Source: Myxococcales bacterium (lineage in GTDB: Bacteria > Myxococcota_A > Polyangia > Polyangiales > Polyangiaceae). Taken from it: 64,000 nucleotides of DNA. Positions 11,918-46,734 of the stretch are shown here, piece by piece; position 1 is the stretch's first letter; every line of letters begins with the position of its first letter. A program made the translations under genes and the position numbers. The DNA is taken from positions 217,516 to 281,515 of the forward strand of contig JADKKK010000003.1 in NCBI GenBank assembly GCA_016720545.1. Direction: 5' to 3'. Under the pieces are notes generated by a model, which made no database searches, was not told the DNA's origin, and saw nothing but the letters and a program-made list of their open reading frames with translations.

Positions 11918-13423
11918 TCATGGGGGCGGTGGGGCGGGAGGCGGCGGCGCGCCAGACGCCGGCGCGCCGGGCGGGGCCGCCCCAGCGGCGAGGCGCTCGC
12001 GGAGGATGCGAGCGGCGTACGCGTACGAGGGGTTCTGCGGCTGCTCGCGCGCGAGCTGCTCGTAGGCCTCCGCCGCCTTGGCCAGATCGCCCTTGTGGAC
12101 CTCGTCGACCGCGGTGCGCTCGAGTGTGGGCCCCTTGCCCGCGTCTTTCCCCGCGGCCGCCGACGGATCGGACGTCCCCGAGGGGGCGGGGCCCGGCGTG
12201 GGGTTGGGCGCGTTGGGCGCAGTGCCCGGGGCGGTCGGAGTGGGCGTCGGCGGCGTGCTCGGCGGCGTGGGCGTGGGGACGAGGCCCATCGCCGAGGGCA
12301 CCGGCGCCGGATCGCCCGCCAGCGCACCGGCCTCGGCGCCCGCGTCGGACCGGGCGGCCTTTTTGGGCGGCGGCGGTGGATCGTCGGTGAAGAGGATGAG
12401 CGCCGCCGCGACGAGCGCCAGCGGCAGGATGATGTAGGTGAGCTTGCGGACGGGCGACGCGGTCTTGAAGTCGGCGATCGCCTTCTTCAGCGGGTCGGTC
12501 TCGGCGGGCGGCGCCGCCTGCGGGAGCTGTCCGACGCCAGAGGCCGAGAATCCTTGAGGGAAAAGTTGCTCCTGCCCGGCCGAGAACGAGCCGCCAGCCT
12601 GCATCGGCTGCATGGGGGGGAAGCCACTGCTTCCCCCGCTCATCGACGCGTTCGGGAAGCCGCCGCTCATGCCGGGCATCCCGCCGGGCATTCCCCCCTG
12701 CCCTTGCATCGGGAAGCCGCCGCTCGCGCCGGGCCCTTGCATCGGGAAGCCGCCGCTCGCGCCGGGCCCTTGCATCGGGAAACCGCCGCTCATGCCTGCG
12801 CTGGGCATCCCGGGCGCCTGCATGGGGAAGCCGCCCCCGGCGGGCGGGAAGGCGCCGGTGGGCGGGCGGGTGCCGCTGCGCGACATGGAGAGATCCAGGG
12901 GCGCGACCCGCGTGGACTCGCCGTCGTCGGCCTGGCTCGAGAACGCCCCGGGCTGGAACGGCCGCGACGGCGCGTCGGTGGGCACCGCCGGAGCGCCCCC
13001 CGAGATTTGCGCGGTGCGGGCAGCGGGTGGCTGGCCAGCCGCAGGAATAGGGGCTGCGGTCGGCGCCTTCGGGGGCGCAGCGGGCGCAGGCGGCGGACCG
13101 GCCGCGGCCCGCTCTTCGGCGCGGTACTCCAAGCGCGCGCCACCGATGTCGATGCTGCAAGGCGGGCGCACCTCGGTCCACTCGGTGCCGATGGGGAAGC
13201 CGTCGACACACGCCGCGTTGTCGGGGTCGGTGGTCTGAAGGAAGAGCGCGTAGCCGTCAAAGTACGCGTACGCGTGCACGTCGAGCATGCGCGCGCCGTC
13301 GATCCGCCACTGGCCGCGGCGGCCGATGCTCAGCGTGGGGGACTCCTTCCCGGAGGTGAGCGGGATGAACCCGGGCTCCCCGATTCCGTTCACGATCTCG
13401 ATGACGTGGGTGGAGGCCGCCAT
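11918..13423 (-). CDS. FHA-like domain protein with Pro/Gly-rich repeats, TM segment and C-terminal TPR-like region
   Basis: The N-terminus is FHA-like ('TLSIGRRGQWRIDGARMLDVHAYAYFDGYALFLQ'). It is followed by three 33-nt in-frame tandem repeats encoding 'GPGASGGFPMQ', then a TM segment ('LTYIILPLALVAAALILF'). The ATG at 13423 is in frame. Confidence 0.55.
   Translation of the reverse strand: MAASTHVIEIVNGIGEPGFIPLTSGKESPTLSIGRRGQWRIDGARMLDVHAYAYFDGYALFLQTTDPDNAACVDGFPIGTEWTEVRPPCSIDIGGARLEYRAEERAAAGPPPAPAAPPKAPTAAPIPAAGQPPAARTAQISGGAPAVPTDAPSRPFQPGAFSSQADDGESTRVAPLDLSMSRSGTRPPTGAFPPAGGGFPMQAPGMPSAGMSGGFPMQGPGASGGFPMQGPGASGGFPMQGQGGMPGGMPGMSGGFPNASMSGGSSGFPPMQPMQAGGSFSAGQEQLFPQGFSASGVGQLPQAAPPAETDPLKKAIADFKTASPVRKLTYIILPLALVAAALILFTDDPPPPPKKAARSDAGAEAGALAGDPAPVPSAMGLVPTPTPPSTPPTPTPTAPGTAPNAPNPTPGPAPSGTSDPSAAAGKDAGKGPTLERTAVDEVHKGDLAKAAEAYEQLAREQPQNPSYAYAARILRERLAAGAAPPGAPASGAPPPPAPPPP
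12700..12798 (-). repeat. 33-bp in-frame tandem repeat x3 (encodes GPGASGGFPMQ)
   Basis: The unit 'ccttgcatcgggaagccgccgctcgcgccgggc' is repeated directly. Confidence 0.7.
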
Positions 13424-17036: not shown

Positions 17037-17921
17037 TCAGAGGTCCACCGCGAGCACCTTGCGGGCGATGATGATGGAGCTGGCCCAACACGCGACGCAG
17101 CCCGTGCTGATGAGGTACCCGGTGACGCTCTTGGTGAGCGGGTCGAAGTAGCCGGGCCAGAGCGAGTTCAGGCCGACGAGCAAGCCGAACGGCATGACCG
17201 CGATGACCCAGAGCTGCATCTTGCCCTCGGCGGTCTTGGTGCGGACGACGCCCTCGAGGCGGCGCATCTCGCGGAGCGTGTTGGCCGTCGCCTCGAGCAC
17301 CTTCGGGAGATTGCCGCCGACCTGCCGACCGATGAGCACGGACGAGAGCGCCGAGTCGAGCTGGCGGCTGCCGACCCGCGCAGCCATGTGGAGCAGCGCC
17401 TGATCGAGCGTGCTGCCGACCTTCATCTCCTTCAGCGCGAGGTCGACCTCCTGACGCATCGGATCGGTGATGACCGACGCGACCGAGTTGAGCGCGCCGC
17501 CGATGCTCGGCGTGGTCTTCAGGGCGTTCGCGAGCGCGAGCATGAAGTTGTCGAGCTGCTCTTCGATGAGCTCGACCCGCTTGCGGCGCATGGCCTCGAT
17601 GTAGACGAGCGGCACCACCGCGATGAGGAGCAGGCCCGCCCACCACATGGGGATGGAGAACAGCACGTTCGCCGTGATGAGGAAGAACGCCACGCCGAGC
17701 TGCCCGAGCGTGATGTTCTGCCCCGGGATGAAGATGAACATCGGCCGCAGGCGCTGCTCGAGCAGCGAGTTGTAGCGGGCCCAGTAGCGGTACACGGGAC
17801 CCGACTGATCGGCCGCGGCGGCCCACGTGCCAGCGAAGAGCGCGAGCCCGGTGACCCCGGCGCTCGCCCACTTCAGCACCTCCGTCACGGGGGACACGTC
17901 CCCCATTCTGCCGCTCATCAT
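17037..17921 (-). CDS. TadB-like pilus-assembly inner-membrane platform protein (T2SSF family)
   Basis: It is a polytopic T2SSF-family protein. Its ATG overlaps the stop of the upstream ATPase (ATGA at 17918-17921). Confidence 0.7.
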   Translation of the reverse strand: MMSGRMGDVSPVTEVLKWASAGVTGLALFAGTWAAAADQSGPVYRYWARYNSLLEQRLRPMFIFIPGQNITLGQLGVAFFLITANVLFSIPMWWAGLLLIAVVPLVYIEAMRRKRVELIEEQLDNFMLALANALKTTPSIGGALNSVASVITDPMRQEVDLALKEMKVGSTLDQALLHMAARVGSRQLDSALSSVLIGRQVGGNLPKVLEATANTLREMRRLEGVVRTKTAEGKMQLWVIAVMPFGLLVGLNSLWPGYFDPLTKSVTGYLISTGCVACWASSIIIARKVLAVDL

Positions 17922-19789
17922 ACGTAGGGCTCCCCGGGCTTCACGAGCCCCATCACGATGAACGTATCGAGGAACGACGGCAAGTAGCCCGTGGCGCGGA
18001 ACTCACCCACGACCTTGCCGCCTGGGCCCGTGCCCGTGCGCACGAAGGCGAAGATGTGGCGCAGCTCGATGTCGCCCGATTCGCGATCGAGGCCGGTCAC
18101 CTCGCTTATCGCGGTCACCTTGCGCGAGCCGTCGGAGAGGCGGCTCTGCTGGACGATCATGTTCACGCTCCCCGCGATCTGCTCGCGGATCGCGCGGACC
18201 GGCAGGTCGAGGCCCGACATGAGCACGAGCGTCTCGAGGCGGTTGATGGCCTCGCGCGGGGAGTTCGCGTGGGTCGTGGTCATCGACCCGTCGTGTCCCG
18301 TGTTCATGGCCTGGAGCATGTCGAGCGCCTCGCCGCCGCGGCACTCGCCGACGACGATGCGGTCGGGGCGCATACGCAGGGCGTTCTTCACGAGGTCGCG
18401 GATGGTGTACTCGCCGCGCCCCTCGAGGTTCGGCGGGCGGGTCTCGAGCGAGACGACGTGCGGCTGCTGCAGCTGGAGCTCGGCCGCGTCTTCGATGGTG
18501 ACGATGCGATCTTCCTCGGGGATCGAGGCGGAGAGCACGTTGAGCAGCGTGGTCTTCCCGCTGCCCGTGCCGCCCGAGATGACGATGTTCTTCTTCGCGA
18601 CCACGCAGCGCGTGAGGAAGCGGCCCATCTGCGTGGTCATCGAGCCGTAGTTGACGAGCTTCTCGAGCGTGAGCGGCACCTTCGAGAACTTGCGGATGGT
18701 GATGCACGCACCGCGGAGCGCGATGGGCTTGATGACCGCGTTCACGCGGGAGCCGTCTTTGAGGCGCGCGTCGACGAGCGGCGACGACTCGTCGATGCGT
18801 CGGCCGAGCGGCGTGACGATGCGCTCGATGACCGCGCGCACGCGCTCGTCGTCGGTGAACCGAGCCTCCGACAGCATGAGCTTGCCGCTGTTCTCGATGT
18901 AGATCGTGTTGGGATCCACGACCATGATCTCGCTGACCTTGGGGTCGGAGAGGAAGCGCTCCAGCGGCCCAAGGCCCAGGGCCTCGTCGGAGAGCTCGCC
19001 GATGAGCGTGTCGCGGTCGATCTCGGGCGGGATCTTCAGCGCCATGTTCGCCACGATCTGGCGGAGCGCGGTGAGCACCTTCGGGCGCATCGAGGGGTCG
19101 TCGAGCTTCTTCGCGTCGATGGTGGCGAGATCGAGGTGCTCGAGGAGCGCCTTGTGGATCTCGCGGCGCATTTCGACGTCTTTTCTTCGCTCTTCGTCGC
19201 GGGGCCGCGACGGCATGAGCTGCGCCTGCATCGCCGGGTTCTGCCCGAGCGCCTGGGGAGGGAGCGGGGGCGCCACGCCGCGCGTCTGCGCGTGGTGCTG
19301 CTGCATGTGCGCGGGCACCTGCCCCGACATGCCCATGTGACCCTGCTGGCCGCCGTGCTGCCCGTGCTGCCCTCCGTGCGCCCCCGGCTGACCCATGTGC
19401 GGGGGCATCTGCGAGGGCATCGGCGGCGGCGCCATCGGCGGCAGGCCCGTCCGCGGGCGGGTCTGCGGCGGCGGCGGCGCCTGCGGCGCGTCGCCCGGGA
19501 AGAACGCGACCGTGAAGTCGCCGAGCACCACCGGTGTGCCGAACGGCACCTCGATCGCCTCGCGCTTCAGCAGAATGCCGCCGGCGAGCGTGCCGTTCGT
19601 GGAGACGTCCTCGACGAGGATCGACTGCGGCCCAATCTGCACGACCGCGTGCTGCCGGGACACGAGATCGCTCTCGAGCCGGAGCACGCACTGCGCGTGA
19701 CGCCCGATGGAGATGGGTCCGGTGACGGCCATCGTCTCCTGACGCTGGCCCTGAGACTCCGACTGGATGAGGACCCGAACCGAGGTCAT
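17918..19789 (-). CDS. FHA-domain-fused CpaF/TadA-family secretion ATPase
   Basis: The N-terminus is a canonical FHA ('[30 protein letters not shown]...DVSTNGT'). A ~170-aa Pro/Gln/His/Met-rich low-complexity linker follows. The CpaF core comes next, with Walker A ('[10 protein letters not shown]') and '[32 protein letters not shown]'. An AGGAG ribosome-binding site lies 6 nt before the ATG. Confidence 0.85.
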
Positions 19790-19828
19790 GCCCTGCTCCT
19801 CGCAGTTTCGGCGGCGGCGGCCATGGCC

Positions 19829-19888
19829 GCTACTTGGCCGCTTACTTGGCCGCTTACTTGGCCGCTTACTTGGCCGCTTACTTGGCCG
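19829..19888. repeat. 12-bp tandem direct repeat (cttacttggccg) x~5
   Basis: Four perfect units plus one degenerate unit lie immediately 3' of the secretin gene. The rightmost unit supplies the secretin stop codon (TAA), and each further unit carries TAA in the same frame. The repeats are in the intergenic space before the FHA-CpaF gene. Confidence 0.75.
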
Positions 19889-21206
19889 ATGGGGGAGCCT
19901 TCGGGAAGGCCTCCACGTTGTCGATGTCCCCCGAGTAGTCCTTGAAGCTGTTCAAGGCGTTGTTGATGATCTCGAGCGAGCTCTTCGGCACCGAGTCCAC
20001 GACGCTGGGGATGATGAACACAGCGCCTTCGGTCTCGGCGTTGTCCCAGCGCTGGCTCCCGAAGAGCGCCCCGACGACGGGCAGCTGCGCGAGGCCCGGC
20101 AGGCCCGCGCTGTCGCGGCGACGGGTCTGGGTCTTGATTCCCGAGAGGACGAGCGCTTGGCCAAGCTTCAGCGTGACGAGGGTCTCGAGCTTGGTGGTCG
20201 AGCGCCCCGGCACCGTGCCCGAGGCCGCCGGCGTGAGGTCGGCCACATCGGCCGCGAGCTTGATCTCGACGTCCTTCGAGTTGACGTCGTACCGCGGCAG
20301 CACGGTCACGTTCGTGCCGAACTGCACCTTGACGAGGCCTACCGAGTTCGCGGTGACCTGCTGGAAGTTCTGCTCGCCGCCGCTCTGGAAGGTGGCCTCG
20401 GAGCCGTTCGACGTGATGACCGTCGACTGCTTCATGATGCGCACCCAGCCGTAGCGCGACCCGATGTCGAGGCGCGGCATGGGCTGGTTCACGATGTTCG
20501 CCTCGGCGCGCGTGGCGGTCTTGGCGATGAAGTCGAAGTCGATGCGCGTGGCGACGATCTGCTGGCCTTGGCCGGAGACGCCGCCGATGGCGTCGGGCCA
20601 CCCGATGCCCACCGTGTAGTTCCAGCTCTTCTCGTACTGGACGAAGTAAAAGTCGAGTCGCATCAACAGCTTACGGTCGGCGGCGCCCTGCCCCACCGTG
20701 ACCACCGACTCGACCTGCCCTTGATACAGCGAGGCGATCTGCTGGATGCGCTTGGAGTCGGATTCGCTCGAGACGCCGCCCTCGATGAACACGCGGCCGC
20801 CCACTCGACGCACCCGAATGCCCGGGATGCCCTCGAGGAGCTGCACGAGCTCCTTCTCGACCACCTGCGGCGGGCGCTGAGCCACCGAGATGTCGTACGT
20901 CACCTGCGACTTGTCCTTGCGGATGAGGAGCAGCGTGGTGGAGCCGGGCTTCACGGCGCGGAGCACGAACTGCGACTTGTCGTCGGTGAGCTGCACGCTC
21001 ACGATGCCGGCCTGACCCTCGGTGTACTGGTCGATGCCGGACGCGGGGATGGTCTTGGTCTCGCCGATGGCGAGCGCGATGTCCTCGCGCTTCTGCGAGC
21101 CCTGCGCCGCGGCGGCGCGAGGCACGATGGAGAGCGAGATCGCCGAGGCGACCCCCATCGCCCCCGCGAGCCAGAAGATACGTGTGGAGCGCTTCAAGCT
21201 AAGCAT
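19878..21206 (-). CDS. Secretin, CpaC/RcpA-like outer-membrane channel
   Basis: The internal ATG gives a signal peptide ('MLSLKRSTRIFWLAGAMGVASA'). The C-terminal secretin domain reads '...LVLSGIKTQTRRRDSAGLPGLAQLPVVGALFGS...AVFIIPSVV'. Its start overlaps the CpaB stop (TGATG). The upstream 170 aa of the track ORF are rejected. Confidence 0.75.
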   Translation of the reverse strand: MLSLKRSTRIFWLAGAMGVASAISLSIVPRAAAAQGSQKREDIALAIGETKTIPASGIDQYTEGQAGIVSVQLTDDKSQFVLRAVKPGSTTLLLIRKDKSQVTYDISVAQRPPQVVEKELVQLLEGIPGIRVRRVGGRVFIEGGVSSESDSKRIQQIASLYQGQVESVVTVGQGAADRKLLMRLDFYFVQYEKSWNYTVGIGWPDAIGGVSGQGQQIVATRIDFDFIAKTATRAEANIVNQPMPRLDIGSRYGWVRIMKQSTVITSNGSEATFQSGGEQNFQQVTANSVGLVKVQFGTNVTVLPRYDVNSKDVEIKLAADVADLTPAASGTVPGRSTTKLETLVTLKLGQALVLSGIKTQTRRRDSAGLPGLAQLPVVGALFGSQRWDNAETEGAVFIIPSVVDSVPKSSLEIINNALNSFKDYSGDIDNVEAFPKAPPSAK

Positions 21207-28237: not shown

Positions 28238-28280
28238 GGCGACCGCCCCTGGCCTCACTTCGGTTCATGGGACCAAACTC

Positions 28281-33785: not shown

Positions 33786-36509
33786 CTACTTCGTGCGTGG
33801 CTCGCGCGGCGGGAGGGCGGGCGCCTTTGCCTTGGTGGCCTTGGTGGCCTTGGTGGCCTTGGTGGCCTTGGTGGCCTTGGTGGCCTTGGTGGCCTTGGTG
33901 GCCTTGGCTGAGTCGCGGGTCGGCTTCGCTGCGCGGAGCTTCGTGGGGCGCTCGGGCCCGACGCGCGCCTCGAGCTTCCGGAGGCGTGTCTCGAGGTCGT
34001 GCGCGTGGGCGCGGAGCTTCTCGAGCTCCGCCTCAGCTTCGTGTGCGCCCGCTTTGCGGTCGCCCGTGAGGTCGCGGAGGACCTCGCGGAGACGGCGGCG
34101 CACACGCACGTCGTCTTCGACGCCCTCGCGGGCACGGAGGGCGCCTCGCGCGCGCGGATCGCCCATGAGCTGGAGGGCGCGCGCGACGTCTTGGCGCAGC
34201 AGCGGGTCGCGATCGTCGAGCAGCTCCTCGAGCAGCTCGCGATCGTCGCGCGCCTCGGAGAGCCTACCGATCGCGAGCGCGGCGGCTCGGCGCGCCCTCG
34301 GCGCCTGCCCGTAGCGGGTCTTGGCGCGGAGGTGGGGCAACGCGCGCGGATCGCGCAGCGACGCGAGCCCGTCGATCGCGCCGGTCCGCACAACCTCGGC
34401 CCACGAGGGGCGATCGAGGAGCTCTACGAGGTCGTCGAGGGCGCCGCCTTGGCGCGTCTTGCCGAGCGAGCGCGCTGCTTCCGCGCTGACGAAGTAGCTC
34501 GCGTCGGAGCGCGCGACGTGGGCGAGGAGCGTCGCCGCCGCCGCGGTGCGGCTCGCGCCCAGCGCCTCTGCGACGGCACGGCGGACCTTCGGCGAGGTCA
34601 CGCCGAGCGCGCGCTCGAGGGCCTCGAACGCGTCCGGCGCGCGTGAGCGGCCGAGCGCCGTGGCGCACTCGGCGCGGACACCCCAGAACTCGTGCTCGTC
34701 GTGGAGGCGCGCCGCGAGCGCGGCTCGCGTGGGGGGGTCGTCGACCCGGGAGAGGCTGCCCGCGGCGAGCCACCGACCCCGCGCCGTGGGCGCGTGGGCG
34801 AGCTGCTCGCGGAGCATGTCGAGCGGACCGCGGACGCTCACCTCGCCGAGCACCCGCAGGTCGGGATCGACGACGACGAAGCGAGGGCGACGCGGCGAAG
34901 GGAGCGCGAACACCTGGTGGCGCTGCGTGAGCTCGACTTCGAGGCGCTTCACCACCGGGCGACCGCGCTCGGTCGCGGTCGCGCAGTCGAGCACGAGCGG
35001 CGCGTGGAAGACGGAGGGCACTCCGTCGGTCGCCGCCTGCCCCTGCTTGACCGTGACGAGCAAGATGCCCTCGTCCCACGCGAACGACACCTCGAGCTCG
35101 ACGTGACCGGCCCGGTGCACGAGCTCCTCGAAGGCGCGCCCGAGGCTGCGACCCGACACGCGCTCGAGAGCGCGCTGGAGATCGCGCGTCTCGACGAGGC
35201 CCTTCGCGTGCGCGCGAAGGTAGTGCGCGACGCCGGCGAAGAAGCCGTCGTCCCCGACGGTGCGGCGCAGCACGTGGAGCACGAGCCCGCCCTTCTCGTA
35301 GAGGTGGCGGTCGAACAGATCGAGCGGGGCGTCGTAGTCGAGGCAGACCAGGGGGCGGCGGTAGCGGCCGCGCGCCTCCGCCACGTAGTTGGCGAGGTCG
35401 GTCTTGAGCCCGTACTCGTACTCGTCGAGCCCGAGGCGGTGCTCGCGGAAGAGGTGCTCGCAGAACGTCGCGAAGCCTTCGTTGAGCCACGCCTCCGACC
35501 AGTCGCGGCACGTGACCAGATCGCCGAACCACTGGTGGGCGAGCTCGTGCGCGATGAGGTCGTCGCTCGTGCCGTCGAGCGCGGCGCGCTCGTCGAGCAG
35601 CACGTGCTCGTAGAGCGTCGTCGCGGTGGTGTTCTCCATTCCCCCGAAGAAGAAGTCGGAGACGACCGCCTGCGCGTACTTGCTCCAGGGATACGGCGAC
35701 GCGAAACGATGGCCAAAGAAACGCATCATTTCCGCGGTTTGCGCGAACGTACGGCGGGCGTCGGCGGCGCGCCCCGGCGGCACGTAATACGTGAGGGGCG
35801 CGGGGCCGTCGTCCTCGAGCACCTCGAGCTCGCCGACCACCAGCGTGAGCAGGTAGCTCGGGTGAGGCTCGCTCATCTTCCAATGGAAGAGGACGCCGTC
35901 GGGGCGCGGCTCGCGCGCCGCGAGGTGCCCGTTCGAGAGCGCCGTGTAGCCCGGCGGGACGACCACCGACAGCTCGGTGGTCATCTTCACGTGGGGCTTG
36001 TCGTGGGAGGGGAAGAAGTGCCGCGCGTCCTCCTCTTGGCACTGAGTCCACGCCTGGCGTGGCAGGTGCGGGCGGTGCTCGTCGGGCTCGATGAAGTAGA
36101 GCCCGCGGCGCGGCGTGCAGGTGTACACGACGCGCACGATGGCCTCTTCGAGGTCGCCCAGCTCCACCCGGAGCGCGCAGCCGTCGTAGATGAAGTCGGC
36201 GCGGGCGCCTCCCACCTCGACCGCCGAGAGCGTGAAGCCCACGGCGTCGAGGGTGATCGCCGACGCCGTCGGGCTCACCCGGCGGACGTGCAGCGTCGCC
36301 GTGCCAGCGACCTCGTGTTTCTCGAACGAGAGGCCGAGGTCGAGCGCGAGGTGCTCGATGACGAAGGGGCGATCACGCTCGAAGTTGCGAGGGCTCGTCG
36401 CGAACGCGAACGCGAACGGGCGGCCTTGCGCGGCTTGGCTCCGCTGCTCCGTGTGTTCGGTGCCCCCGGAGAGGCACCGGCAGCGGGCGTGGAGGCGGTG
36501 CTCTCCCAT
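33786..36509 (-). CDS. pepN: M1-family aminopeptidase N with C-terminal HEAT-like repeats and (KAT)n tail
   Basis: It has the GAMEN-like motif 'GGMENTT', the zinc motif 'HELAHQWFGD' and 'WLNEGFATF'. The C-terminus ends in KATKATKAT..., encoded by a 9-bp tandem repeat. Confidence 0.8.
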   Translation of the reverse strand: MGEHRLHARCRCLSGGTEHTEQRSQAAQGRPFAFAFATSPRNFERDRPFVIEHLALDLGLSFEKHEVAGTATLHVRRVSPTASAITLDAVGFTLSAVEVGGARADFIYDGCALRVELGDLEEAIVRVVYTCTPRRGLYFIEPDEHRPHLPRQAWTQCQEEDARHFFPSHDKPHVKMTTELSVVVPPGYTALSNGHLAAREPRPDGVLFHWKMSEPHPSYLLTLVVGELEVLEDDGPAPLTYYVPPGRAADARRTFAQTAEMMRFFGHRFASPYPWSKYAQAVVSDFFFGGMENTTATTLYEHVLLDERAALDGTSDDLIAHELAHQWFGDLVTCRDWSEAWLNEGFATFCEHLFREHRLGLDEYEYGLKTDLANYVAEARGRYRRPLVCLDYDAPLDLFDRHLYEKGGLVLHVLRRTVGDDGFFAGVAHYLRAHAKGLVETRDLQRALERVSGRSLGRAFEELVHRAGHVELEVSFAWDEGILLVTVKQGQAATDGVPSVFHAPLVLDCATATERGRPVVKRLEVELTQRHQVFALPSPRRPRFVVVDPDLRVLGEVSVRGPLDMLREQLAHAPTARGRWLAAGSLSRVDDPPTRAALAARLHDEHEFWGVRAECATALGRSRAPDAFEALERALGVTSPKVRRAVAEALGASRTAAAATLLAHVARSDASYFVSAEAARSLGKTRQGGALDDLVELLDRPSWAEVVRTGAIDGLASLRDPRALPHLRAKTRYGQAPRARRAAALAIGRLSEARDDRELLEELLDDRDPLLRQDVARALQLMGDPRARGALRAREGVEDDVRVRRRLREVLRDLTGDRKAGAHEAEAELEKLRAHAHDLETRLRKLEARVGPERPTKLRAAKPTRDSAKATKATKATKATKATKATKATKATKAKAPALPPREPRTK
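33822..33910 (-). repeat. 9-bp in-frame tandem repeat (cttggtggc) x8-10 encoding (KAT)n
   Basis: There are eight perfect units at 33831-33902 plus degenerate flanking units. Confidence 0.8.
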
Positions 36510-39118: not shown

Positions 39119-39733
39119 TCAGTCGAGCTGCAGCTTGGGTTCGCCTTCAGGGTGGAGCGCGAGCACCCTCGTCGAGGGCGGGAGGTTCGGCTGGGCCGGG
39201 TCCTCACGCACCAGGACGACGTCGGTGGCCCGGACCCGGTCTACGCGCCAGTTGAGCTGGTAGTCGGCCCCGTTCGCGCCCCCGACGTGCACGGTGTCGG
39301 GACGGCCGAGGAAGTCGCCGCGCTTCAGAACCCACCCCTTGCCGCCCGGATCGATGAGCATCGCGCGCGGGTAGTCTCCCCCGGTCACGATGGCAGCGAG
39401 CTTCAGCTCGTCGAGGCTGTACTGCCCCAGGAGCACCTTGCGCTGGTTCGCGGGCTTGGGACCCTTCCGGGTCTCGTCCAGCGTCGCGGCGAACGAGCGG
39501 AACGGATCGCGGTTCTGGTCAGCCTCGACGAAGTCGCCCTCGGAGTAGTCGACCTTCACGACCTGGCTGGGGGGGAGCGCGGCGGCGTCGAGCGCGGCGA
39601 CGCCCGCGTCCGCCACGGTGGGTCCCGTATTGAGCACCGCGTCGAAGCGCTTGGGCTCCTTGCAGCCGGCTCCGACGACCAAGCTGAGGGCCGCGAGCCC
39701 CACGAGGGCGATCCCCTTGGAGAGGCGGCTCAT
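39119..39733 (-). CDS. pilP: PilP lipoprotein
   Basis: It has a lipobox ('MSRLSKGIALVGLAALSLVVGAGC'). Its ATG overlaps the pilO stop (ATGA at 39730-39733). Confidence 0.75.
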   Translation of the reverse strand: MSRLSKGIALVGLAALSLVVGAGCKEPKRFDAVLNTGPTVADAGVAALDAAALPPSQVVKVDYSEGDFVEADQNRDPFRSFAATLDETRKGPKPANQRKVLLGQYSLDELKLAAIVTGGDYPRAMLIDPGGKGWVLKRGDFLGRPDTVHVGGANGADYQLNWRVDRVRATDVVLVREDPAQPNLPPSTRVLALHPEGEPKLQLD

Positions 39734-40377
39734 TTCGGCGCCCCCGCCTGGCCAGGCGCGCCAGGCGCACCAGGCGCACCAGGCGCACCAGGCGTACCAG
39801 GTGCGGCGGCGGGCTTGATGAGATGGAACGTCGTCGCGAGGCACATGGCCTTCAGCACCACGTCTTCGCCCTCGACCTTGGGATCGCTCAGCTCGACGTT
39901 CTCGAGGTTGATGATGCGGTCCTGTTTGCCGATCTCGAACATGAACTTGCCGATCTGGTGGAACTTGCCCGACAGCTCGAGGCGCATCGGGACCTTCGCG
40001 TAGAAGGTTGCGGGGACCTCTTCTTGGGGCTGCCACGCCTTCAGGTTGGTGCCGCTGATGTTCGAGACCTGTTGGATGGCCGACAGGAACGCCGCGGCCT
40101 CGGTCTCGGCAGGCAGGATCTTGTTGAGCTCACGCTGCTTCTGCTGGCGCATGGCGAGCTCTTCGCGGTCTTGGATGTAGCTGGCCTCCGCCTGGCGGAG
40201 GCTCACGATTTGGGCCTCGAGCTCCTTCGAGCGGCGGCCCTCCTGCTCGATCTTCGCGACGACGTCGGTGTGGAGCACCACGTAGTAACCGACGGCGACG
40301 AGCACGACGAGGAAGAGTCCGAAGCCTACCTTCGCGGGGAGCGAGAGCTTGGAGAGGCTGATCGACGCGGCGGCCAT
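39730..40377 (-). CDS. pilO: PilO inner-membrane pilus alignment protein
   Basis: It has a single N-terminal TM followed by a coiled coil. The C-terminal (PGA)n is encoded by the 9-bp repeat 'ccaggcgca' x~5 at about 39755-39805. Confidence 0.75.
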   Translation of the reverse strand: MAAASISLSKLSLPAKVGFGLFLVVLVAVGYYVVLHTDVVAKIEQEGRRSKELEAQIVSLRQAEASYIQDREELAMRQQKQRELNKILPAETEAAAFLSAIQQVSNISGTNLKAWQPQEEVPATFYAKVPMRLELSGKFHQIGKFMFEIGKQDRIINLENVELSDPKVEGEDVVLKAMCLATTFHLIKPAAAPGTPGAPGAPGAPGAPGQAGAPK

Positions 40378-43520: not shown

Positions 43521-43554
43521 TCCGCGCCACCCGACGCGAGCTCGTGCCTGACCT

Positions 43555-43596
43555 CGCCTGGCCTGGCCTGGCCTGGCCTCGCCTGGCCTCGCCTGG
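43555..43596. repeat. Pentanucleotide microsatellite (cctgg/cctcg) x8
   Basis: It lies in the 117-bp convergent intergenic gap. Confidence 0.6.
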
Positions 43597-43637
43597 CCGC
43601 GCGGCTCTCGCGCGGGACTGGCGGTGTGCGCTCGACG

Positions 43638-46286
43638 CTACCTCTTGGTGGGCGGCGGTACGGGGCTCGTGGGCAAGAACCGGAAGCCCCGCGGGGCCAG
43701 CGGCTTGGCGACCGCGTAGAGCGTGGTCGCGTCGTAGCTCGCGTGGGGCGGCGCAGACGTGCCGCTCCGGTGCCAGGACACGGGCTCGGCCACGCCCCGC
43801 TCGAGCTGCACCACCCGCTCACAGCCGAGCGCGACGAGCGCCTCCACCGGCCCTCGGCCGGCGGCGGACGCGCGTGCAATATACACATTGCCGCTGGCGA
43901 TCCCGAGCGCTGCGCGCGCGGGGCGATCACCGACGGCGCGCCCCTCGTCGGCGAGGAGGGGGAGCTCGGCGTAGTCGTGGTGAGCGAGGTCGGCGGGGAG
44001 CTCGCGGGCGAGCTGGATGGCGAGCGCGCCGTCTTCGCGCGCGACCAGGAGGGCGCGTCCTTCCCCGCTCGCGGCGGCGGTAGGCGCCGCGGCGTGCGGC
44101 GAGTGCACGACGCGGCCGTCGGTCGCGAGCCCCCACGGCCGCTTCTCCGGCGACGTGCCCAGCGTGAGCGCGAAGAGGGCGCGCTTCGCGTCGGCCTCCC
44201 CGAGCTCGTGGAGCGCCTCGCCCGAGGCGCCCGAGGGCTCTCGTTTTCCGCCGCGAATTCGATAGGTTGCGCGACCGGAAGACACGAGCGAGACCTCGAC
44301 CCCGAGGGCGGTGCGCGTGGACCAGACCCCCGGGTGCCACGCGGGGGCGGGCTGCGTGCCCGCCTCGGGCGCCCACGGGCGCGCGCCCTCGAGCGGGGGC
44401 GGCGTGGGGTCGCTCACCATCATGTAGAAGAAGTCCTTCGGGGAGAACTCGATGAAGCGGTCGGGTGAGATCTCCATCTGGTTCGTGAGCAGCTCGGTCT
44501 TGTAGGCCTTGCCCTTGATCTCGGTGATGTTGGTGAACACGAGCCCGGTGTGGTGCGGGTTCATGTCGAGGTGCATGCCGTAGACGCAGCCGGCCATCTT
44601 CATGGCCTTGCCGAGGGTGTTCGCGGAGACGTCGTCGCCCCACGCGTAGAGCATGTGCCCGGCGGGCGTGACGCAGATGCCCGAGCGCTCGGTCTGCATG
44701 CTGGTGCCGGGGAGCGTGAACCCCCACAGCGAGCGACCGGTAGGGTTCACCTTGTCGCCGTCGAGGAGCGGGTCGAGGTTCTGGCGGAAGGAGAGGATGT
44801 CCCCGTCGTCGATCCCGGCGAGCCCCGAGACCTTGGTCGTGTTGCCCCAAGAGCCCATCCCCACGCGGCCGTCCTTCAGGAGGACGACGGCGGCCGCACC
44901 CGGCTGGGGCGGCAGCAGCACGCGCCGACGGACCATCATGCCGTAGCTGCCGTGCTCGGTCTTGAAGCCGCCGTTGAACGCGGCGGCGACGCGCCCGAAC
45001 ACCGCCTTCTCGCGCGGAATGCGGCCCGCGCCCGGTGGACCGACGGCCGGCTTGGGGTCCTCCATGCCGCCCTCCATGCCGAGGTCGAGTTGGCGCATGT
45101 CCATCGCGACGAGGAGCACCTTCGCGTAGGGGCGCTCCTCGTCCGAGCGGACGAACGTGCGGTAGAACATGCTCGGCGCCGTGGCCTGGCCGGGCACCCC
45201 CGGAAAGCTGGGGAAGCGCTTCAGCCAGGCCTGCGTGGGGACCACCCAGGCGCCCTCGCCCTCCTGCGGGTTCTTCCAGATCGACGGGATGTCCGCGGGA
45301 GGAAAGCCCGCGCCTCCCTCCCCCGCTTCGGCGGCATCGAGGAGCTTCGGAGGGGGCGGCGCGGCCTTCGCGAGCTCGCTGCCCTCGGCGCCACCGCCGA
45401 CCTTGAACGACAAGCGGCGGGCCTGATCACGCGCGTAGAACGCGCGCTCCTCGAGCCACGCGATGGGCGCAGGCCCGATCTCGGGCATCGCGCGGACGGT
45501 GTCGACCGCCCAGAAGATGGGGCGCTTCGGGAGGTGCTGGACGGCCTGCGCGTGGACGCCCTCGGCCTCGGGGACGACCTCGCGCGTGGCGCCGTCGAGG
45601 CGCGCGCTGCGGGCGCTCGCGCCGTCGGCGAGGGACACCCGGAGCCCTCCCTCGTCGAGCGCGAGCCCGAGACGCGGAGTGGGCAACTCGAGGGTCAGAT
45701 CGACGCGACCGATGCCTGCGAAAGAGCCGGTCTGCTGGTAGTTCGTGACCGCCGACATGACGCGGTCAGCGGCGTGCGTGGCGAGGTTCTGTGGGCCTTC
45801 GCCGGCGAGGTCGAGGTAGCTGACGCTCTGCTCCTGGCCAAACGCGTACGTGGCGTAGGCCGCCTTGTCTCCGAGGAGGACGAGCGCGTGGTCGTCGCCG
45901 AGGTCCGTGGCGGTGAGGTTCCTCGCGTCCACCACCTCGAGCACGCGCCCCTCGGGAGTGACGCGAACGCGCGCGCGAAAGAGGTCGCGCGGAGCGTCCT
46001 TGGCGGCACCGGCGAGGAACAGCACGCGGCGCCCGAACAGCGCGTCGAGCGCGGCGCCGCGGCTCGCCTCCCAGCGGTAGTCTCCGCTCCCGACGACCCG
46101 ACCCGTCGCGCGGCCGAGGAGCAGCGCGACGCCCGCAGAGGAGGCCTCGACGGGCGAGGGGCGGGCCAGGGCCACGACGACGCCGAGCGCCGAGAACGCC
46201 GCGAGGGCGGCGCGGCGGCTAGCGAGGGCGGCGGTCGGCGAGGCGGGCGGAGCGGTCACGGCGTGCCTACATTGGACACGTTGCAT
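43638..46286 (-). CDS. Large secreted protein with phosphodiester-glycosidase-like (DUF2233/NAGPA-like) C-terminal region
   Basis: It has an N-terminal hydrophobic signal region and consistent coding composition over 882 aa. The domain call is pattern-level only. Confidence 0.5.
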   Translation of the reverse strand: MQRVQCRHAVTAPPASPTAALASRRAALAAFSALGVVVALARPSPVEASSAGVALLLGRATGRVVGSGDYRWEASRGAALDALFGRRVLFLAGAAKDAPRDLFRARVRVTPEGRVLEVVDARNLTATDLGDDHALVLLGDKAAYATYAFGQEQSVSYLDLAGEGPQNLATHAADRVMSAVTNYQQTGSFAGIGRVDLTLELPTPRLGLALDEGGLRVSLADGASARSARLDGATREVVPEAEGVHAQAVQHLPKRPIFWAVDTVRAMPEIGPAPIAWLEERAFYARDQARRLSFKVGGGAEGSELAKAAPPPPKLLDAAEAGEGGAGFPPADIPSIWKNPQEGEGAWVVPTQAWLKRFPSFPGVPGQATAPSMFYRTFVRSDEERPYAKVLLVAMDMRQLDLGMEGGMEDPKPAVGPPGAGRIPREKAVFGRVAAAFNGGFKTEHGSYGMMVRRRVLLPPQPGAAAVVLLKDGRVGMGSWGNTTKVSGLAGIDDGDILSFRQNLDPLLDGDKVNPTGRSLWGFTLPGTSMQTERSGICVTPAGHMLYAWGDDVSANTLGKAMKMAGCVYGMHLDMNPHHTGLVFTNITEIKGKAYKTELLTNQMEISPDRFIEFSPKDFFYMMVSDPTPPPLEGARPWAPEAGTQPAPAWHPGVWSTRTALGVEVSLVSSGRATYRIRGGKREPSGASGEALHELGEADAKRALFALTLGTSPEKRPWGLATDGRVVHSPHAAAPTAAASGEGRALLVAREDGALAIQLARELPADLAHHDYAELPLLADEGRAVGDRPARAALGIASGNVYIARASAAGRGPVEALVALGCERVVQLERGVAEPVSWHRSGTSAPPHASYDATTLYAVAKPLAPRGFRFLPTSPVPPPTKR

Positions 46287-46296
46287 GGCTCGTCAA

Positions 46297-46734
46297 GTTC
46301 ATCGCGACACCTCGCCTTCGGCTCGGGGTCGCCATCGACCTTCGTTCGCCCCTTCGGGGCTCACTTCGAGGTTCATCGCGACACCTCGCCTTCGGCTCGG
46401 GGTCGCCATCGACCTTCGTTCGCCCCTTCGGGGCTCACTTCGAGGTTCAGCGCGACACCTCGCCTTCGGCTCGGGGTCGCCATCGACCTTCGTTCGCCCC
46501 TTCGGGGCTCACTTCGAGGTTCATCGCGTCACCTCTCCTTCCGCTCGGGGTCGCCATCGACCTTCGTTCGCCCCTTCGGGGCTCACTTCGAGGTTCATTG
46601 CGACACCTCTCCTTCGGCTCGGGGTCGCCATCGACCTTCGTTCGCCCCTTCGGGGCTCACTTCGAGGTTCATCGCGTCACCTCTCCTTCCGCTCGGGGTC
46701 GCCATCGACCTTCGTTCGCCCCTTCGGGGCTCAC
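46297..46734. repeat. 74-bp tandem repeat array, ~6 copies, each with a GCCCC-TTC-GGGGC hairpin
   Basis: Unit starts at 46297, 46371, 46445, 46519, 46593 and 46667 give an exact 74-bp period with a few substitutions between copies. It sits in the divergent promoter region between the 882-aa gene (ATG 46286) and the FIST gene (ATG 46832). The period is not a multiple of 3. Confidence 0.85.

Follow-up and report, generated by a model that had tools for sequence, protein, structure and literature searches.

A copy-variable 12-nt tandem repeat at the secretin–ATPase junction of a Kil-like Tad gene run in an uncultured Polyangiaceae-like bacterium

The secretin–ATPase junction and its tandem array

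The window analysed was a 64,000-nt stretch of contig JADKKK010000003.1, assigned to a Myxococcales bacterium. Two genes on its minus strand, separated by a gap of 88 nt (19790..19877), flanked a short tandem array. The upstream gene (19878..21206) encoded a CpaC/RcpA-type (KilC-like) secretin of 442 aa ending in ...PKAPPSAK-stop (Pfam Secretin, 4.8e-25; T2SS-T3SS_pil_N, 7e-05), and the downstream gene (17918..19789) encoded an FHA-CpaF (KilF-like) Tad ATPase of 623 aa (Pfam T2SSE, 8.1e-64; FHA, 1.5e-09). These are the two flanking genes named in an earlier reading of this DNA, made from the sequence only and referred to below as the sequence-only reading, but they lie on the minus strand. The CpaF ATPase, with an FHA domain fused at its N-terminus, lay beside the short secretin together with RcpC/CpaB and TadB/TadC homologues (Pfam domains and gene order). 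By domains and gene order, this context appears Kil-like and fits the Kil-type Tad apparatus of Myxococcota; KilF and KilC have been described (PMC8460266).

The exact 442-aa secretin product was recorded in other assemblies, and a 443-aa form of the secretin had no match on record. The C-terminus PPSAK was common to nearly all of the 120 secretin homologues listed, down to 56% identity, and the ATPase N-terminus MT(S/A)VRVLIQSE was conserved in relatives. The neighbouring gene junctions, read in the conspecific contig L001, measured −4, +1, +21, −4, and −4 nt; the secretin–ATPase gap was the one sizeable gap in a gene run that is otherwise tightly packed.

Tandem Repeats Finder (TRF) reported positions 19824..19888 as one array with a period of 12, 5.5 copies, 98% matches, and a score of 123. 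The unit GCGGCCAAGTAA, with at most one mismatch allowed, occurred five times in the window, every time within the array; dinucleotide shuffles gave a mean of 0.18 occurrences, and none of 100 reached five. The 12-bp tandem repeat reported in the sequence-only reading between the secretin and FHA-CpaF genes was therefore real. On the minus strand, the array ran as tcggccaagTAA, three copies of gcggccaagTAA, gcggccaagTA-, and gcggcca, with three perfect units and two near-perfect ones. Unit 1 (19878..19889; tcggccaagTAA, given also as tcggccaagtaa) comprised the Ser-Ala-Lys codons and the functional stop codon at 19880-19878. Units 2–4 (19842..19877) were the three perfect copies, each with an in-frame TAA, and these were the units that differed between strains. 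Unit 5 (19831..19841) was an 11-nt copy that had lost one A; with the next G it formed a TAG (19832-19830). The partial unit 6 (gcggcca) lay inside a perfect 14-bp palindrome, GCGGCCATGGCCGC (19817..19830), read from the sequence.

Read in the secretin frame, the array gave SAK* AAK* AAK* AAK* AAK*, with TAA at 19880-78, 19868-66, 19856-54, and 19844-42 and TAG at 19832-30. Five consecutive in-frame stops were thus present, as had been proposed, except that the fifth, in the 11-nt unit, was TAG and not TAA. The array had also been placed exactly at the secretin stop codon and described as filling the 88-nt gap, and both statements needed correction. It started 8 nt upstream of the stop, overlapping the last codons of the secretin, with unit 1 made of the last three codons and the stop, and it occupied 54 of the 88 nt. 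The other 34 nt (19790..19823) were a non-repeat spacer carrying a Shine-Dalgarno (SD) sequence, GAGGAG (19801-19796), 6 nt before the ATPase ATG. This spacer was identical in all conspecific contigs, and its gcgaggagcagggcATG motif was kept in the sister lineages L008 and L021.

Beyond the first stop, the array lay outside the translated frame; its units had no start codon, and each closed with a stop in the secretin frame. The (LLGR)n encoded on the plus strand belonged to shadow ORFs that run antisense, in a genome of 70% GC; the earlier view was likewise that no supported gene is there. A mini-ORF of 12 codons (19824..19786), whose TGA overlapped the ATPase ATG, was attributed to chance, its start codon being GTG in L008 and ATC in L021. 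Ribosome hopping between the repeated AAG-UAA sites was set aside, because a stop follows every landing site and no product would result. The AAGTAA core was compositionally unusual for a 70% GC genome.

Copy number among conspecific assemblies and relatives

The conspecific set consisted of nine independent assemblies, the window included, which were ~0.3–7 SNPs/kb apart and carried the identical 623-aa ATPase or the identical 442-aa secretin. The gap was 88 nt in the window, L001, and L005; 76 nt in L002, L004, L007, and L044, the last of which was found via its exact 442-aa secretin record; and 64 nt in L003 and L006. The number of stop-containing units was 3, 4, or 5, in steps of exactly 12 nt, and the flanks were identical across the aligned 190 nt. 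The deletions fell in units 2–4, covering 12 nt in L002, L004, and L007 and 24 nt in L003 and L006. The variability expected of a slippage-prone, copy-variable spacer, one of the roles suggested in the sequence-only reading, was thus found.

In pairwise comparisons of 3.8–14 kb between the window and L003, L004, L006, or L007, the array was the sole indel. The other indels fell in tandem repeats at 12247-12269 and 12700-12791 and in a short stretch at 28243-28261. Copy number already differed in pairs only 0.26–0.4 SNP/kb apart (L003-L004, window-L004, and L004-L006), and the 3-unit allele was present on two SNP haplotypes, an assignment that is approximate because the contigs of metagenome-assembled genomes (MAGs) are population consensus sequences. 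The differences between near-identical pairs, together with the two haplotypes, point to recurrent change in copy number. With its exact 12-nt steps and its changes between such close pairs, the array is a hypermutable VNTR, with a mutability well above the background substitution rate.

The array and its length differences are almost certainly not an assembly or sequencing artefact. Assemblers can collapse tandem repeats, and the k=31 Logan contig L043 broke inside the array; however, all three alleles were found in two or more independent assemblies each, made in different projects with different assemblers, k127 and k141 contigs with a k-mer exceeding the 65-nt array were included, and the length differences were exact multiples of 12 with nothing else changed.

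The sister lineage L008-L017 (94.4% nt identity) had ~1.75 imperfect units and one stop, and its gap was 49 nt without variation in all 10 contigs read; this invariance is consistent with instability being governed by how many perfect units an array has. L021 (92.4% nt) had three decayed units, in which the 11-nt unit was still recognisable and the palindrome was broken. Its extra stops were changed from TAA to CAA and from TAG to CAG, so the extra stops were not conserved. L018 (85.6%) had only a proto-repeat, cggccaagTAAcggccaaag. No nearby extra stop was found in L008, L018, L022, L032, or L033. The secretin–ATPase gap was ~8–49 nt in most relatives; in the more distant ones it was mostly ~8–45 nt and, apart from L040, had no repeat. 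In the L045 lineage (~60% identity), the same terminal codons were duplicated in frame (PPSAK-PPSK), which indicates that the 3' end of the secretin gene was duplicated more than once. The sequence-only reading had held that a regulatory role would be unlikely if copy number were identical and unconserved in all relatives; copy number in fact varied, and the lack of conservation in relatives was found.

Three wider searches were made. A scan of one genome per species for two perfect units returned only two unrelated alphaproteobacterial gene ends and no conspecific genome. A secretin-based search of metagenome contigs returned four loci, none of which was a new conspecific junction. An exact-match scan of the metagenome contig collection with the 35-nt 3' flank gave no matches, though the JGI contig L004, evidently missing from that collection, carries this flank.

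Regulatory signals and competing explanations

Several roles can be considered for such an array. Termination or attenuation of transcription at the secretin–ATPase junction, the latter raised in the sequence-only reading, is extremely unlikely. The palindrome could form a weak RNA hairpin at the 3' end of the array (GCGGC-CAUG-GCCGC, −10.2 kcal/mol), but it was indistinguishable from shuffles (z −0.82), and no U-tract followed it. No sigma-70 promoter or terminator-like site was found on the coding (minus) strand at the junction, the only terminator-like match being within the secretin gene, on the other strand. Folding energies were equal to those of shuffles for all three alleles (5, 4, and 3 units) and for two sister lineages (z −0.04 to +0.37). 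A search of the whole window against Rfam 15 at gathering score returned no family, leader and riboswitch families included, and in the local search (E<=1) the best score was 22-23 bits against a threshold of 56. Two further candidates at the junction were rejected. The predicted pairing of GGCUCC at the 3' end of the secretin gene with the SD was no better than chance. A plus-strand TGGCCG-N5-TTGGCC, seen by eye, was not accepted as a sigma-54 −24/−12 element because GG replaces the invariant GC, the spacing is off by one, and the site is antisense to the operon.

It is likewise very unlikely that the units are iterated recognition sites, whether bound by a regulator, as had been suggested earlier, here a DNA-binding one with sites about one helical turn apart, or cut or bound as A/U-rich AAGUAA islands by an RNase or an RNA-binding protein. 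The regular direct repeats, the composition of the AAGTAA core, and the perfect palindrome adjoining the array would suit this role. Against it, the unit was confined to the array within 64 kb, the closest sister lineages (92–94% nt identity) had either a decayed array or none, the palindrome was broken in L021, and the scan of one genome per species for two units found them only at the two unrelated alphaproteobacterial loci. UAA is the least leaky stop codon, which counts against a further explanation, namely that the tandem stops were selected as a fail-safe that halts read-through and keeps the invariant PPSAK of the secretin intact, the read-through product ending in ...AAK. Five in-frame stops spaced four codons apart and the near-invariance of PPSAK among the homologues listed are in line with such a function. 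Its probability is nevertheless very low: L021 has lost the extra stops, L008, L018, and every more distant relative lack them, a single extra stop would suffice, copy number varies freely, and published genome-wide work found additional in-frame stops not to be under selection in bacteria (PMC6764699).

The array might instead act as a contingency locus, in which added units shift the terminating ribosome away from the ATPase start or change the processing of the transcribed spacer, and in which copy-number changes adjust the secretin:ATPase ratio of the Kil-like Tad machine heritably but reversibly. The recurrent polymorphism among near-identical strains is consistent with this, as are the position in a tightly packed operon whose other junctions are overlapping or at most 21 nt and the shorter gaps of relatives, mostly 8–49 nt. 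The efficiency of coupling drops with stop-start distance (PMC12548453), and there are precedents in the 7-bp SSR of hmw1A (PMC12721329) and the promoter tandem repeats of Mycobacterium tuberculosis (PMC12817950). We consider this explanation rather unlikely. A strong SD, GAGGAG, precedes the ATPase start at optimal spacing in every allele, so that coupling is not a requirement for the ATPase; the RNA structure and promoter searches gave nothing above background; sister lineages do without a variable array; and copy number spans a narrow range of 3 to 5 units. Because other tandem repeats of this genome vary too, the variability of this one calls for no special explanation. A more specific version, which we regard as unlikely, is a heritable and reversible spacer rheostat: spacer length would set coupling and, through it, the stoichiometry of secretin and ATPase in a Tad machine that is Kil-like and possibly predatory. 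On this version, the stop in each unit would let spacer length change with the PPSAK C-terminus untouched, and activated-sludge populations would keep mixed expression states.

Probable origin and relation to known repeat systems

The array is probably a VNTR that began when the final 12 nt of the secretin gene were duplicated in tandem, with replication slippage now altering its length and the stops as a by-product. The last two to three codons and the TAA would have been duplicated head-to-tail, after which slippage would lengthen and shorten the array. Because the unit includes the native stop codon, every added copy brings another in-frame stop; the ladder of stops would then reflect which 12 nt were duplicated and would not be a device. 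However many copies there are, the first stop terminates translation, so the PPSAK C-terminus is never altered, and this would explain why such a duplication is tolerated here. The untranslated stop-to-start spacer lengthens in 12-nt steps (64, 76, and 88 nt). We infer slippage as the mechanism and near-neutrality of the changes from these features, and the array looks like an ordinary slippage-prone repeat and not like a dedicated regulatory device. Against the neutral reading, three alleles at comparable natural frequency are also what fluctuating selection on a contingency locus could produce.

The array has just one demonstrable effect, which is to lengthen the spacer ahead of the ATPase ribosome-binding site. 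Increases of less than 20 nt in stop-start distance can reduce translational coupling substantially (review PMC12548453). As the junction is the only sizeable gap in the packed run, a change of 12–24 nt could matter for coupling; it is plausible that each added unit mildly weakens secretin-to-ATPase coupling, and tuning of this coupling is possible by analogy with the published effects of distance.

VNTR or minisatellite loci that change by slipped-strand mispairing form the class used for MLVA typing. The array resembles such bacterial loci: its units are perfect and head-to-tail, conspecific strains differ by whole units while the flanks are conserved, it mutates at a rate far exceeding that of point substitution, and imperfect arrays in relatives are stable or decayed. 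It differs in that the host is an uncultured, Polyangiaceae-like MAG of the Myxococcota and not a typed pathogen. The MIRU-VNTR of M. tuberculosis senX3-regX3 is likewise a copy-variable repeat between co-oriented operon genes in a high-GC genome (PMC4213456; PMC12548453). However, MIRUs are 53–77 bp long and dispersed over many loci, whereas the unit here is 12 nt and confined within 64 kb to a single locus. The MIRUs contain short ORFs that are coupled to the adjacent genes at −4 nt, in a region with promoter activity, whereas the array has neither a start codon nor a promoter-like site. It therefore falls outside the MIRU definition (units of ~40–100 bp, many intergenic loci, and a coupled short ORF).

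In the 5'-UTR of the Haemophilus influenzae adhesin genes hmw1A/hmw2A, a heptanucleotide SSR is also transcribed before the start codon of an envelope or surface-machinery gene and varies naturally in copy number, expression being inversely proportional to repeat number (PMC12721329). Those repeats form an arm of a long hairpin processed by RNase III, whereas no comparable hairpin was predicted here (z near 0), and the array has few units (3–5). The promoter tandem repeats of M. tuberculosis, which are easily missed by short-read assemblies, are similar in their polyphyletic expansion and contraction in non-coding DNA upstream of genes (PMC12817950). They duplicate promoter elements, whereas the array lies downstream of a stop inside an operon and has no promoter-like hexamers. 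Fail-safe tandem stops share with the array extra in-frame stops shortly past the primary stop, whereas here the stops were unconserved in sister lineages and made en bloc by duplication, not point by point. In a phase-variable contingency locus, the repeat sits where its length alters spacing, folding, or frame, such as a promoter, a structured 5'-UTR, or a reading frame, and the array was in none of these. Its place between the secretin stop and the ATPase SD is compatible with an effect on expression but is not evidence of one.

The array provides a clean natural example of a stop-containing repeat that can expand at the end of a gene while a constrained protein terminus stays the same, and it illustrates that a ladder of stops need not have any meaning. 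If copy number affected ATPase output, this would be a rare case of repeat-length control at an intercistronic junction, in a Tad/Kil-type machine, the usual sites of such control being, by contrast, the promoter or the inside of the reading frame. Assemblies at k=31 break at the array, which calls for caution, and the array is a ready strain marker for this uncultured wastewater myxobacterium.

Structure of the secretin-ATPase junction

The window had a GC content of 70%, and the genes at the array site lay on the minus strand. The secretin gene (21206..19878, minus strand; 442 aa) carried a Pfam Secretin domain (4.8e-25) and a pilus N-terminal domain, and the ATPase gene (19789..17918, minus strand; 623 aa) encoded a T2SSE/CpaF core (8.1e-64) preceded by an FHA domain at the N-terminus. 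In conspecific contigs, the called genes ran from an RcpC/CpaB homologue through the secretin, FHA-CpaF, and two T2SSF (TadB/TadC) genes to further genes and then another T2SSE ATPase. By description, the locus agreed with the published Kil apparatus of Myxococcus, in which KilF is fused to FHA and the KilC secretin is short (PMC8460266).

Of the 120 homologues listed (P0001-P0120), reaching down to 56% identity, nearly all kept the secretin C-terminus PPSAK (19881..19895); PPSAN, PPNAK, PPTAK, PPAAK, and PPSAR were rare variants. Such strong conservation at the very end of the protein suggests that it serves in recognition or anchoring; to our knowledge, no such role has been described for the KilC/CpaC-type secretins of Myxococcota.

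TRF analysis identified an array with a period of 12 nt at 19824..19888 (score 123; 5.5 copies with 98% matches). The 12-nt unit occurred five times in the window, always within the array; shuffled sequences contained 0.18 on average, and 0/100 reached five. On the coding strand, the order was ...ccc cca TCG GCC AAG TAA, GCG GCC AAG TAA (three times), GCG GCC AAG TA-, and GCGGCCAtggccgccgccgccgaaactgcGAGGAGcagggcATG. Unit 1 belonged to the secretin gene, supplying its last codons (Ser-Ala-Lys-stop), units 2-4 were perfect copies (Ala-Ala-Lys-stop), and unit 5 had lost one base, so that its stop became an in-frame TAG. The sequence-only reading had counted five TAA stops; the number five held, with four TAA and one TAG. 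It had also started the array exactly at the secretin stop and let it fill the 88-nt gap before the ATPase, which needed correction: the array started 8 nt before the stop and took up 54 nt of this gap. The remaining 34 nt contained a perfect 14-bp palindrome (GCGGCCATGGCCGC, 19817..19830) at the array's distal end and a strong Shine-Dalgarno sequence 6 nt before the ATPase ATG. Among contigs of related lineages, L008 had a related inverted repeat (CGGCCA-N5-TGGCCG), and the palindrome was broken in L021.

The unit was stop-free in the other two coding-strand frames and in every plus-strand frame. The plus-strand (LLGR)n, noted earlier as lacking a supported gene, fell in antisense shadow ORFs. 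A mini-ORF of 12 codons on the minus strand (19786..19824; ATG GCC GCC GCC GCC GAA ACT GCG AGG AGC AGG GCA TGA) overlapped the ATPase ATG with its TGA in an ATGA coupling arrangement; its start was GTG in L008 and ATC in L021, no Shine-Dalgarno sequence lay upstream, and it is probably due to chance.

Length alleles within the species

Eight further assemblies of the same species were found via exact ATPase/secretin protein matches, giving nine with the window. They came from different projects (NCBI MAGs, ENA, and JGI), several from wastewater, and showed 0.4-3.9 SNPs per kb relative to the window. The gap between the secretin stop and the ATPase start took three lengths: 88 nt (window, L001, and L005), 76 nt (L002, L004, L007, and L044), and 64 nt (L003 and L006). 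The MAG sequences behind these alleles, and behind the haplotypes below, are consensus sequences. Alignment showed that the shorter alleles lacked exactly one or two GCGGCCAAGTAA units, the rest of the 190-nt region being identical. The array was the sole indel in pairwise comparisons of 3.8-14 kb, and copy number already differed in pairs with just 2-3 SNPs in 7.6 kb. The 3.2 kb common to eight sequences had only five SNP sites, yet three length alleles, and the 3-unit allele was present on two different haplotypes.

Two or more independent assemblies carried each length allele, among them k127 and k141 contigs with a k-mer longer than the array; therefore, collapse by the assembler is an unlikely source of the alleles. 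The array is a genuine, hypermutable VNTR, and the earlier suggestion of a copy-number-variable spacer was borne out when copy number was compared between strains. The Logan contig L043 (SRR11673989_43801, k=31) ended 19 nt into the array, at locus position 1948. Systematic breaks at this and similar arrays are expected in Logan-type assemblies and would bias the alleles that can be recovered.

Essentially all indels in about 22 kb were accounted for by the focal array and three other sites: a 12-nt tandem duplication (12247..12269), one copy of which was absent in L003; a length polymorphism, also against L003, in a coding 33-nt tandem repeat (12700..12791); and a short intergenic stretch prone to indels (28243..28261), seen against L001 and L002.

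The junction in related lineages

Secretin homologues were numerous, and the junction DNA was compared in graded relatives. The contigs L008-L017 (94.4% nt secretin identity) carried tccgccaagTAGgcggccaagccgtggcc, about 1.75 imperfect units with one stop, and the gap was 49 nt in 10/10 contigs read. L021 (92.4% nt) carried a decayed array, aaagTAAgcggccaagCAAgcggccaggCA-gcggccatcgcc, which held the 11-nt penultimate unit of the window and in which both extra stops were changed from T to C. L018/L019 (85.6% nt) had a proto-repeat, cggccaagTAAcggccaaag, and a gap of 24 nt. The repeat was absent, with gaps of about 8-45 nt, from L022, L032, and L033 (82.6, 80.2, and 78.8% nt) and from L038 and L039 (80% and 65% aa). 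It was also absent from L020 (79.9% nt), where the conserved ATPase start was about 50 nt away by eye, and from L040 (60% aa), with a longer gap of roughly 100 nt by eye. In the simplest history, a short direct repeat across the secretin stop codon would be old and would have grown to about 3 units before the window species and L021 diverged; afterwards the array would have decayed in L021 and stayed perfect, and hence unstable, in the window species.

In L045 (1676..1723), from a lineage of about 60% identity, the same terminal codons were duplicated in frame without a stop (ccgccgtccgccaag ccgccctcgaag TGA), yielding PPSAK-PPSK and a protein four residues longer; thus, the GC-rich secretin 3' end was duplicated more than once. 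The listed homologue P0033 had a similar end, PPSAKPAGK. The exact two-unit 24-mer GCGGCCAAGTAAGCGGCCAAGTAA was also found at the 3' ends of unrelated genes, in a Rhodobacterales MAG (L036, 5631..5672; a ClpP-like gene, judged by eye, ending TSK* AAK* AAK*) and in Sinorhizobium saheli (L037, 1900..1923; QAAK* AAK* * *), so stop-containing terminal duplications occur sporadically elsewhere.

Probable slippage, spacer length, and other tandem repeats

The array varies by whole units, is recently homogeneous, and is decayed or absent in sister lineages. Units would be gained and lost by slipped-strand mispairing in replication. The native stop is part of the duplicated 12 nt, so the protein ends at PPSAK whatever the copy number, and expansion is invisible to selection on the secretin; the stop ladder would be a by-product of duplication. 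The single physical consequence was a longer untranslated spacer before the ATPase Shine-Dalgarno sequence, 64-88 nt versus about 8-49 nt in most relatives. We consider it probable that the array is a near-neutral slippage VNTR with by-product stops. That array length instead grades ATPase translation as a functional rheostat is rather improbable. The other junctions in the gene run were tight (-4, +1, +21, -4, and -4 nt), and translational coupling declines as the stop-start distance increases (PMC12548453), so a modest graded effect of the spacer on ATPase translation is conceivable; however, the ATPase retained its own strong Shine-Dalgarno sequence in all alleles.

A transcriptional attenuator was not supported: on the coding strand, the array region had no hairpin plus U-tract, and the array-end hairpin was weak (-10.2 kcal/mol, z -0.82). 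All three length alleles (5, 4, and 3 units) and two sister lineages had MFE values equal to those of dinucleotide shuffles (z -0.04 to +0.37), and the array matched no known RNA family. For iterated regulator-binding sites no evidence was obtained, the unit being confined to the array locus in the window and unconserved in sister lineages. No promoter was found at the array; a sigma-54-like match on the antisense strand, noticed by eye, was rejected for its wrong spacing and absent invariant GC. Fail-safe stops are improbable, as the extra stops were unconserved in L021 and L008; published work finds no selection for additional stops in bacteria (PMC6764699).

In the tests run, the array behaved like an ordinary bacterial VNTR. 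By position, its closest named analogue was the MIRU array between senX3 and regX3 of M. tuberculosis (PMC4213456, PMC12548453), from which it differed in unit length, dispersal, and internal ORFs. The hmw1A repeat in the 5'-UTR (PMC12721329) and the tandem repeats of M. tuberculosis promoters (PMC12817950) resembled it only as length-variable, non-coding repeats located before a start codon; the structural and promoter features on which those repeats depend were not found at the array.

The window contained other arrays. A large one (46297..46734; 74-nt unit, 5.9 copies, 96% matches, TRF score 813), whose period is not a multiple of 3, lay between divergent genes, upstream of gene 43638..46286 (minus strand). 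It matched no Rfam family at gathering score, and a single unit on the minus strand formed two hairpins, folding better than shuffles (z -2.86, 2/200). A 9-nt unit was repeated 8.8 times with 100% matches (33829..33907) within the 3' end of gene 33786..36509 (minus strand), another 9-nt unit 5.6 times (39752..39801) 22 nt away from where gene 39730..40377 (minus strand) stops, and GCCTG 10.6 times (43546..43598) between two genes in convergent orientation. Tandem repeats near gene ends appear to be generally abundant in this genome.
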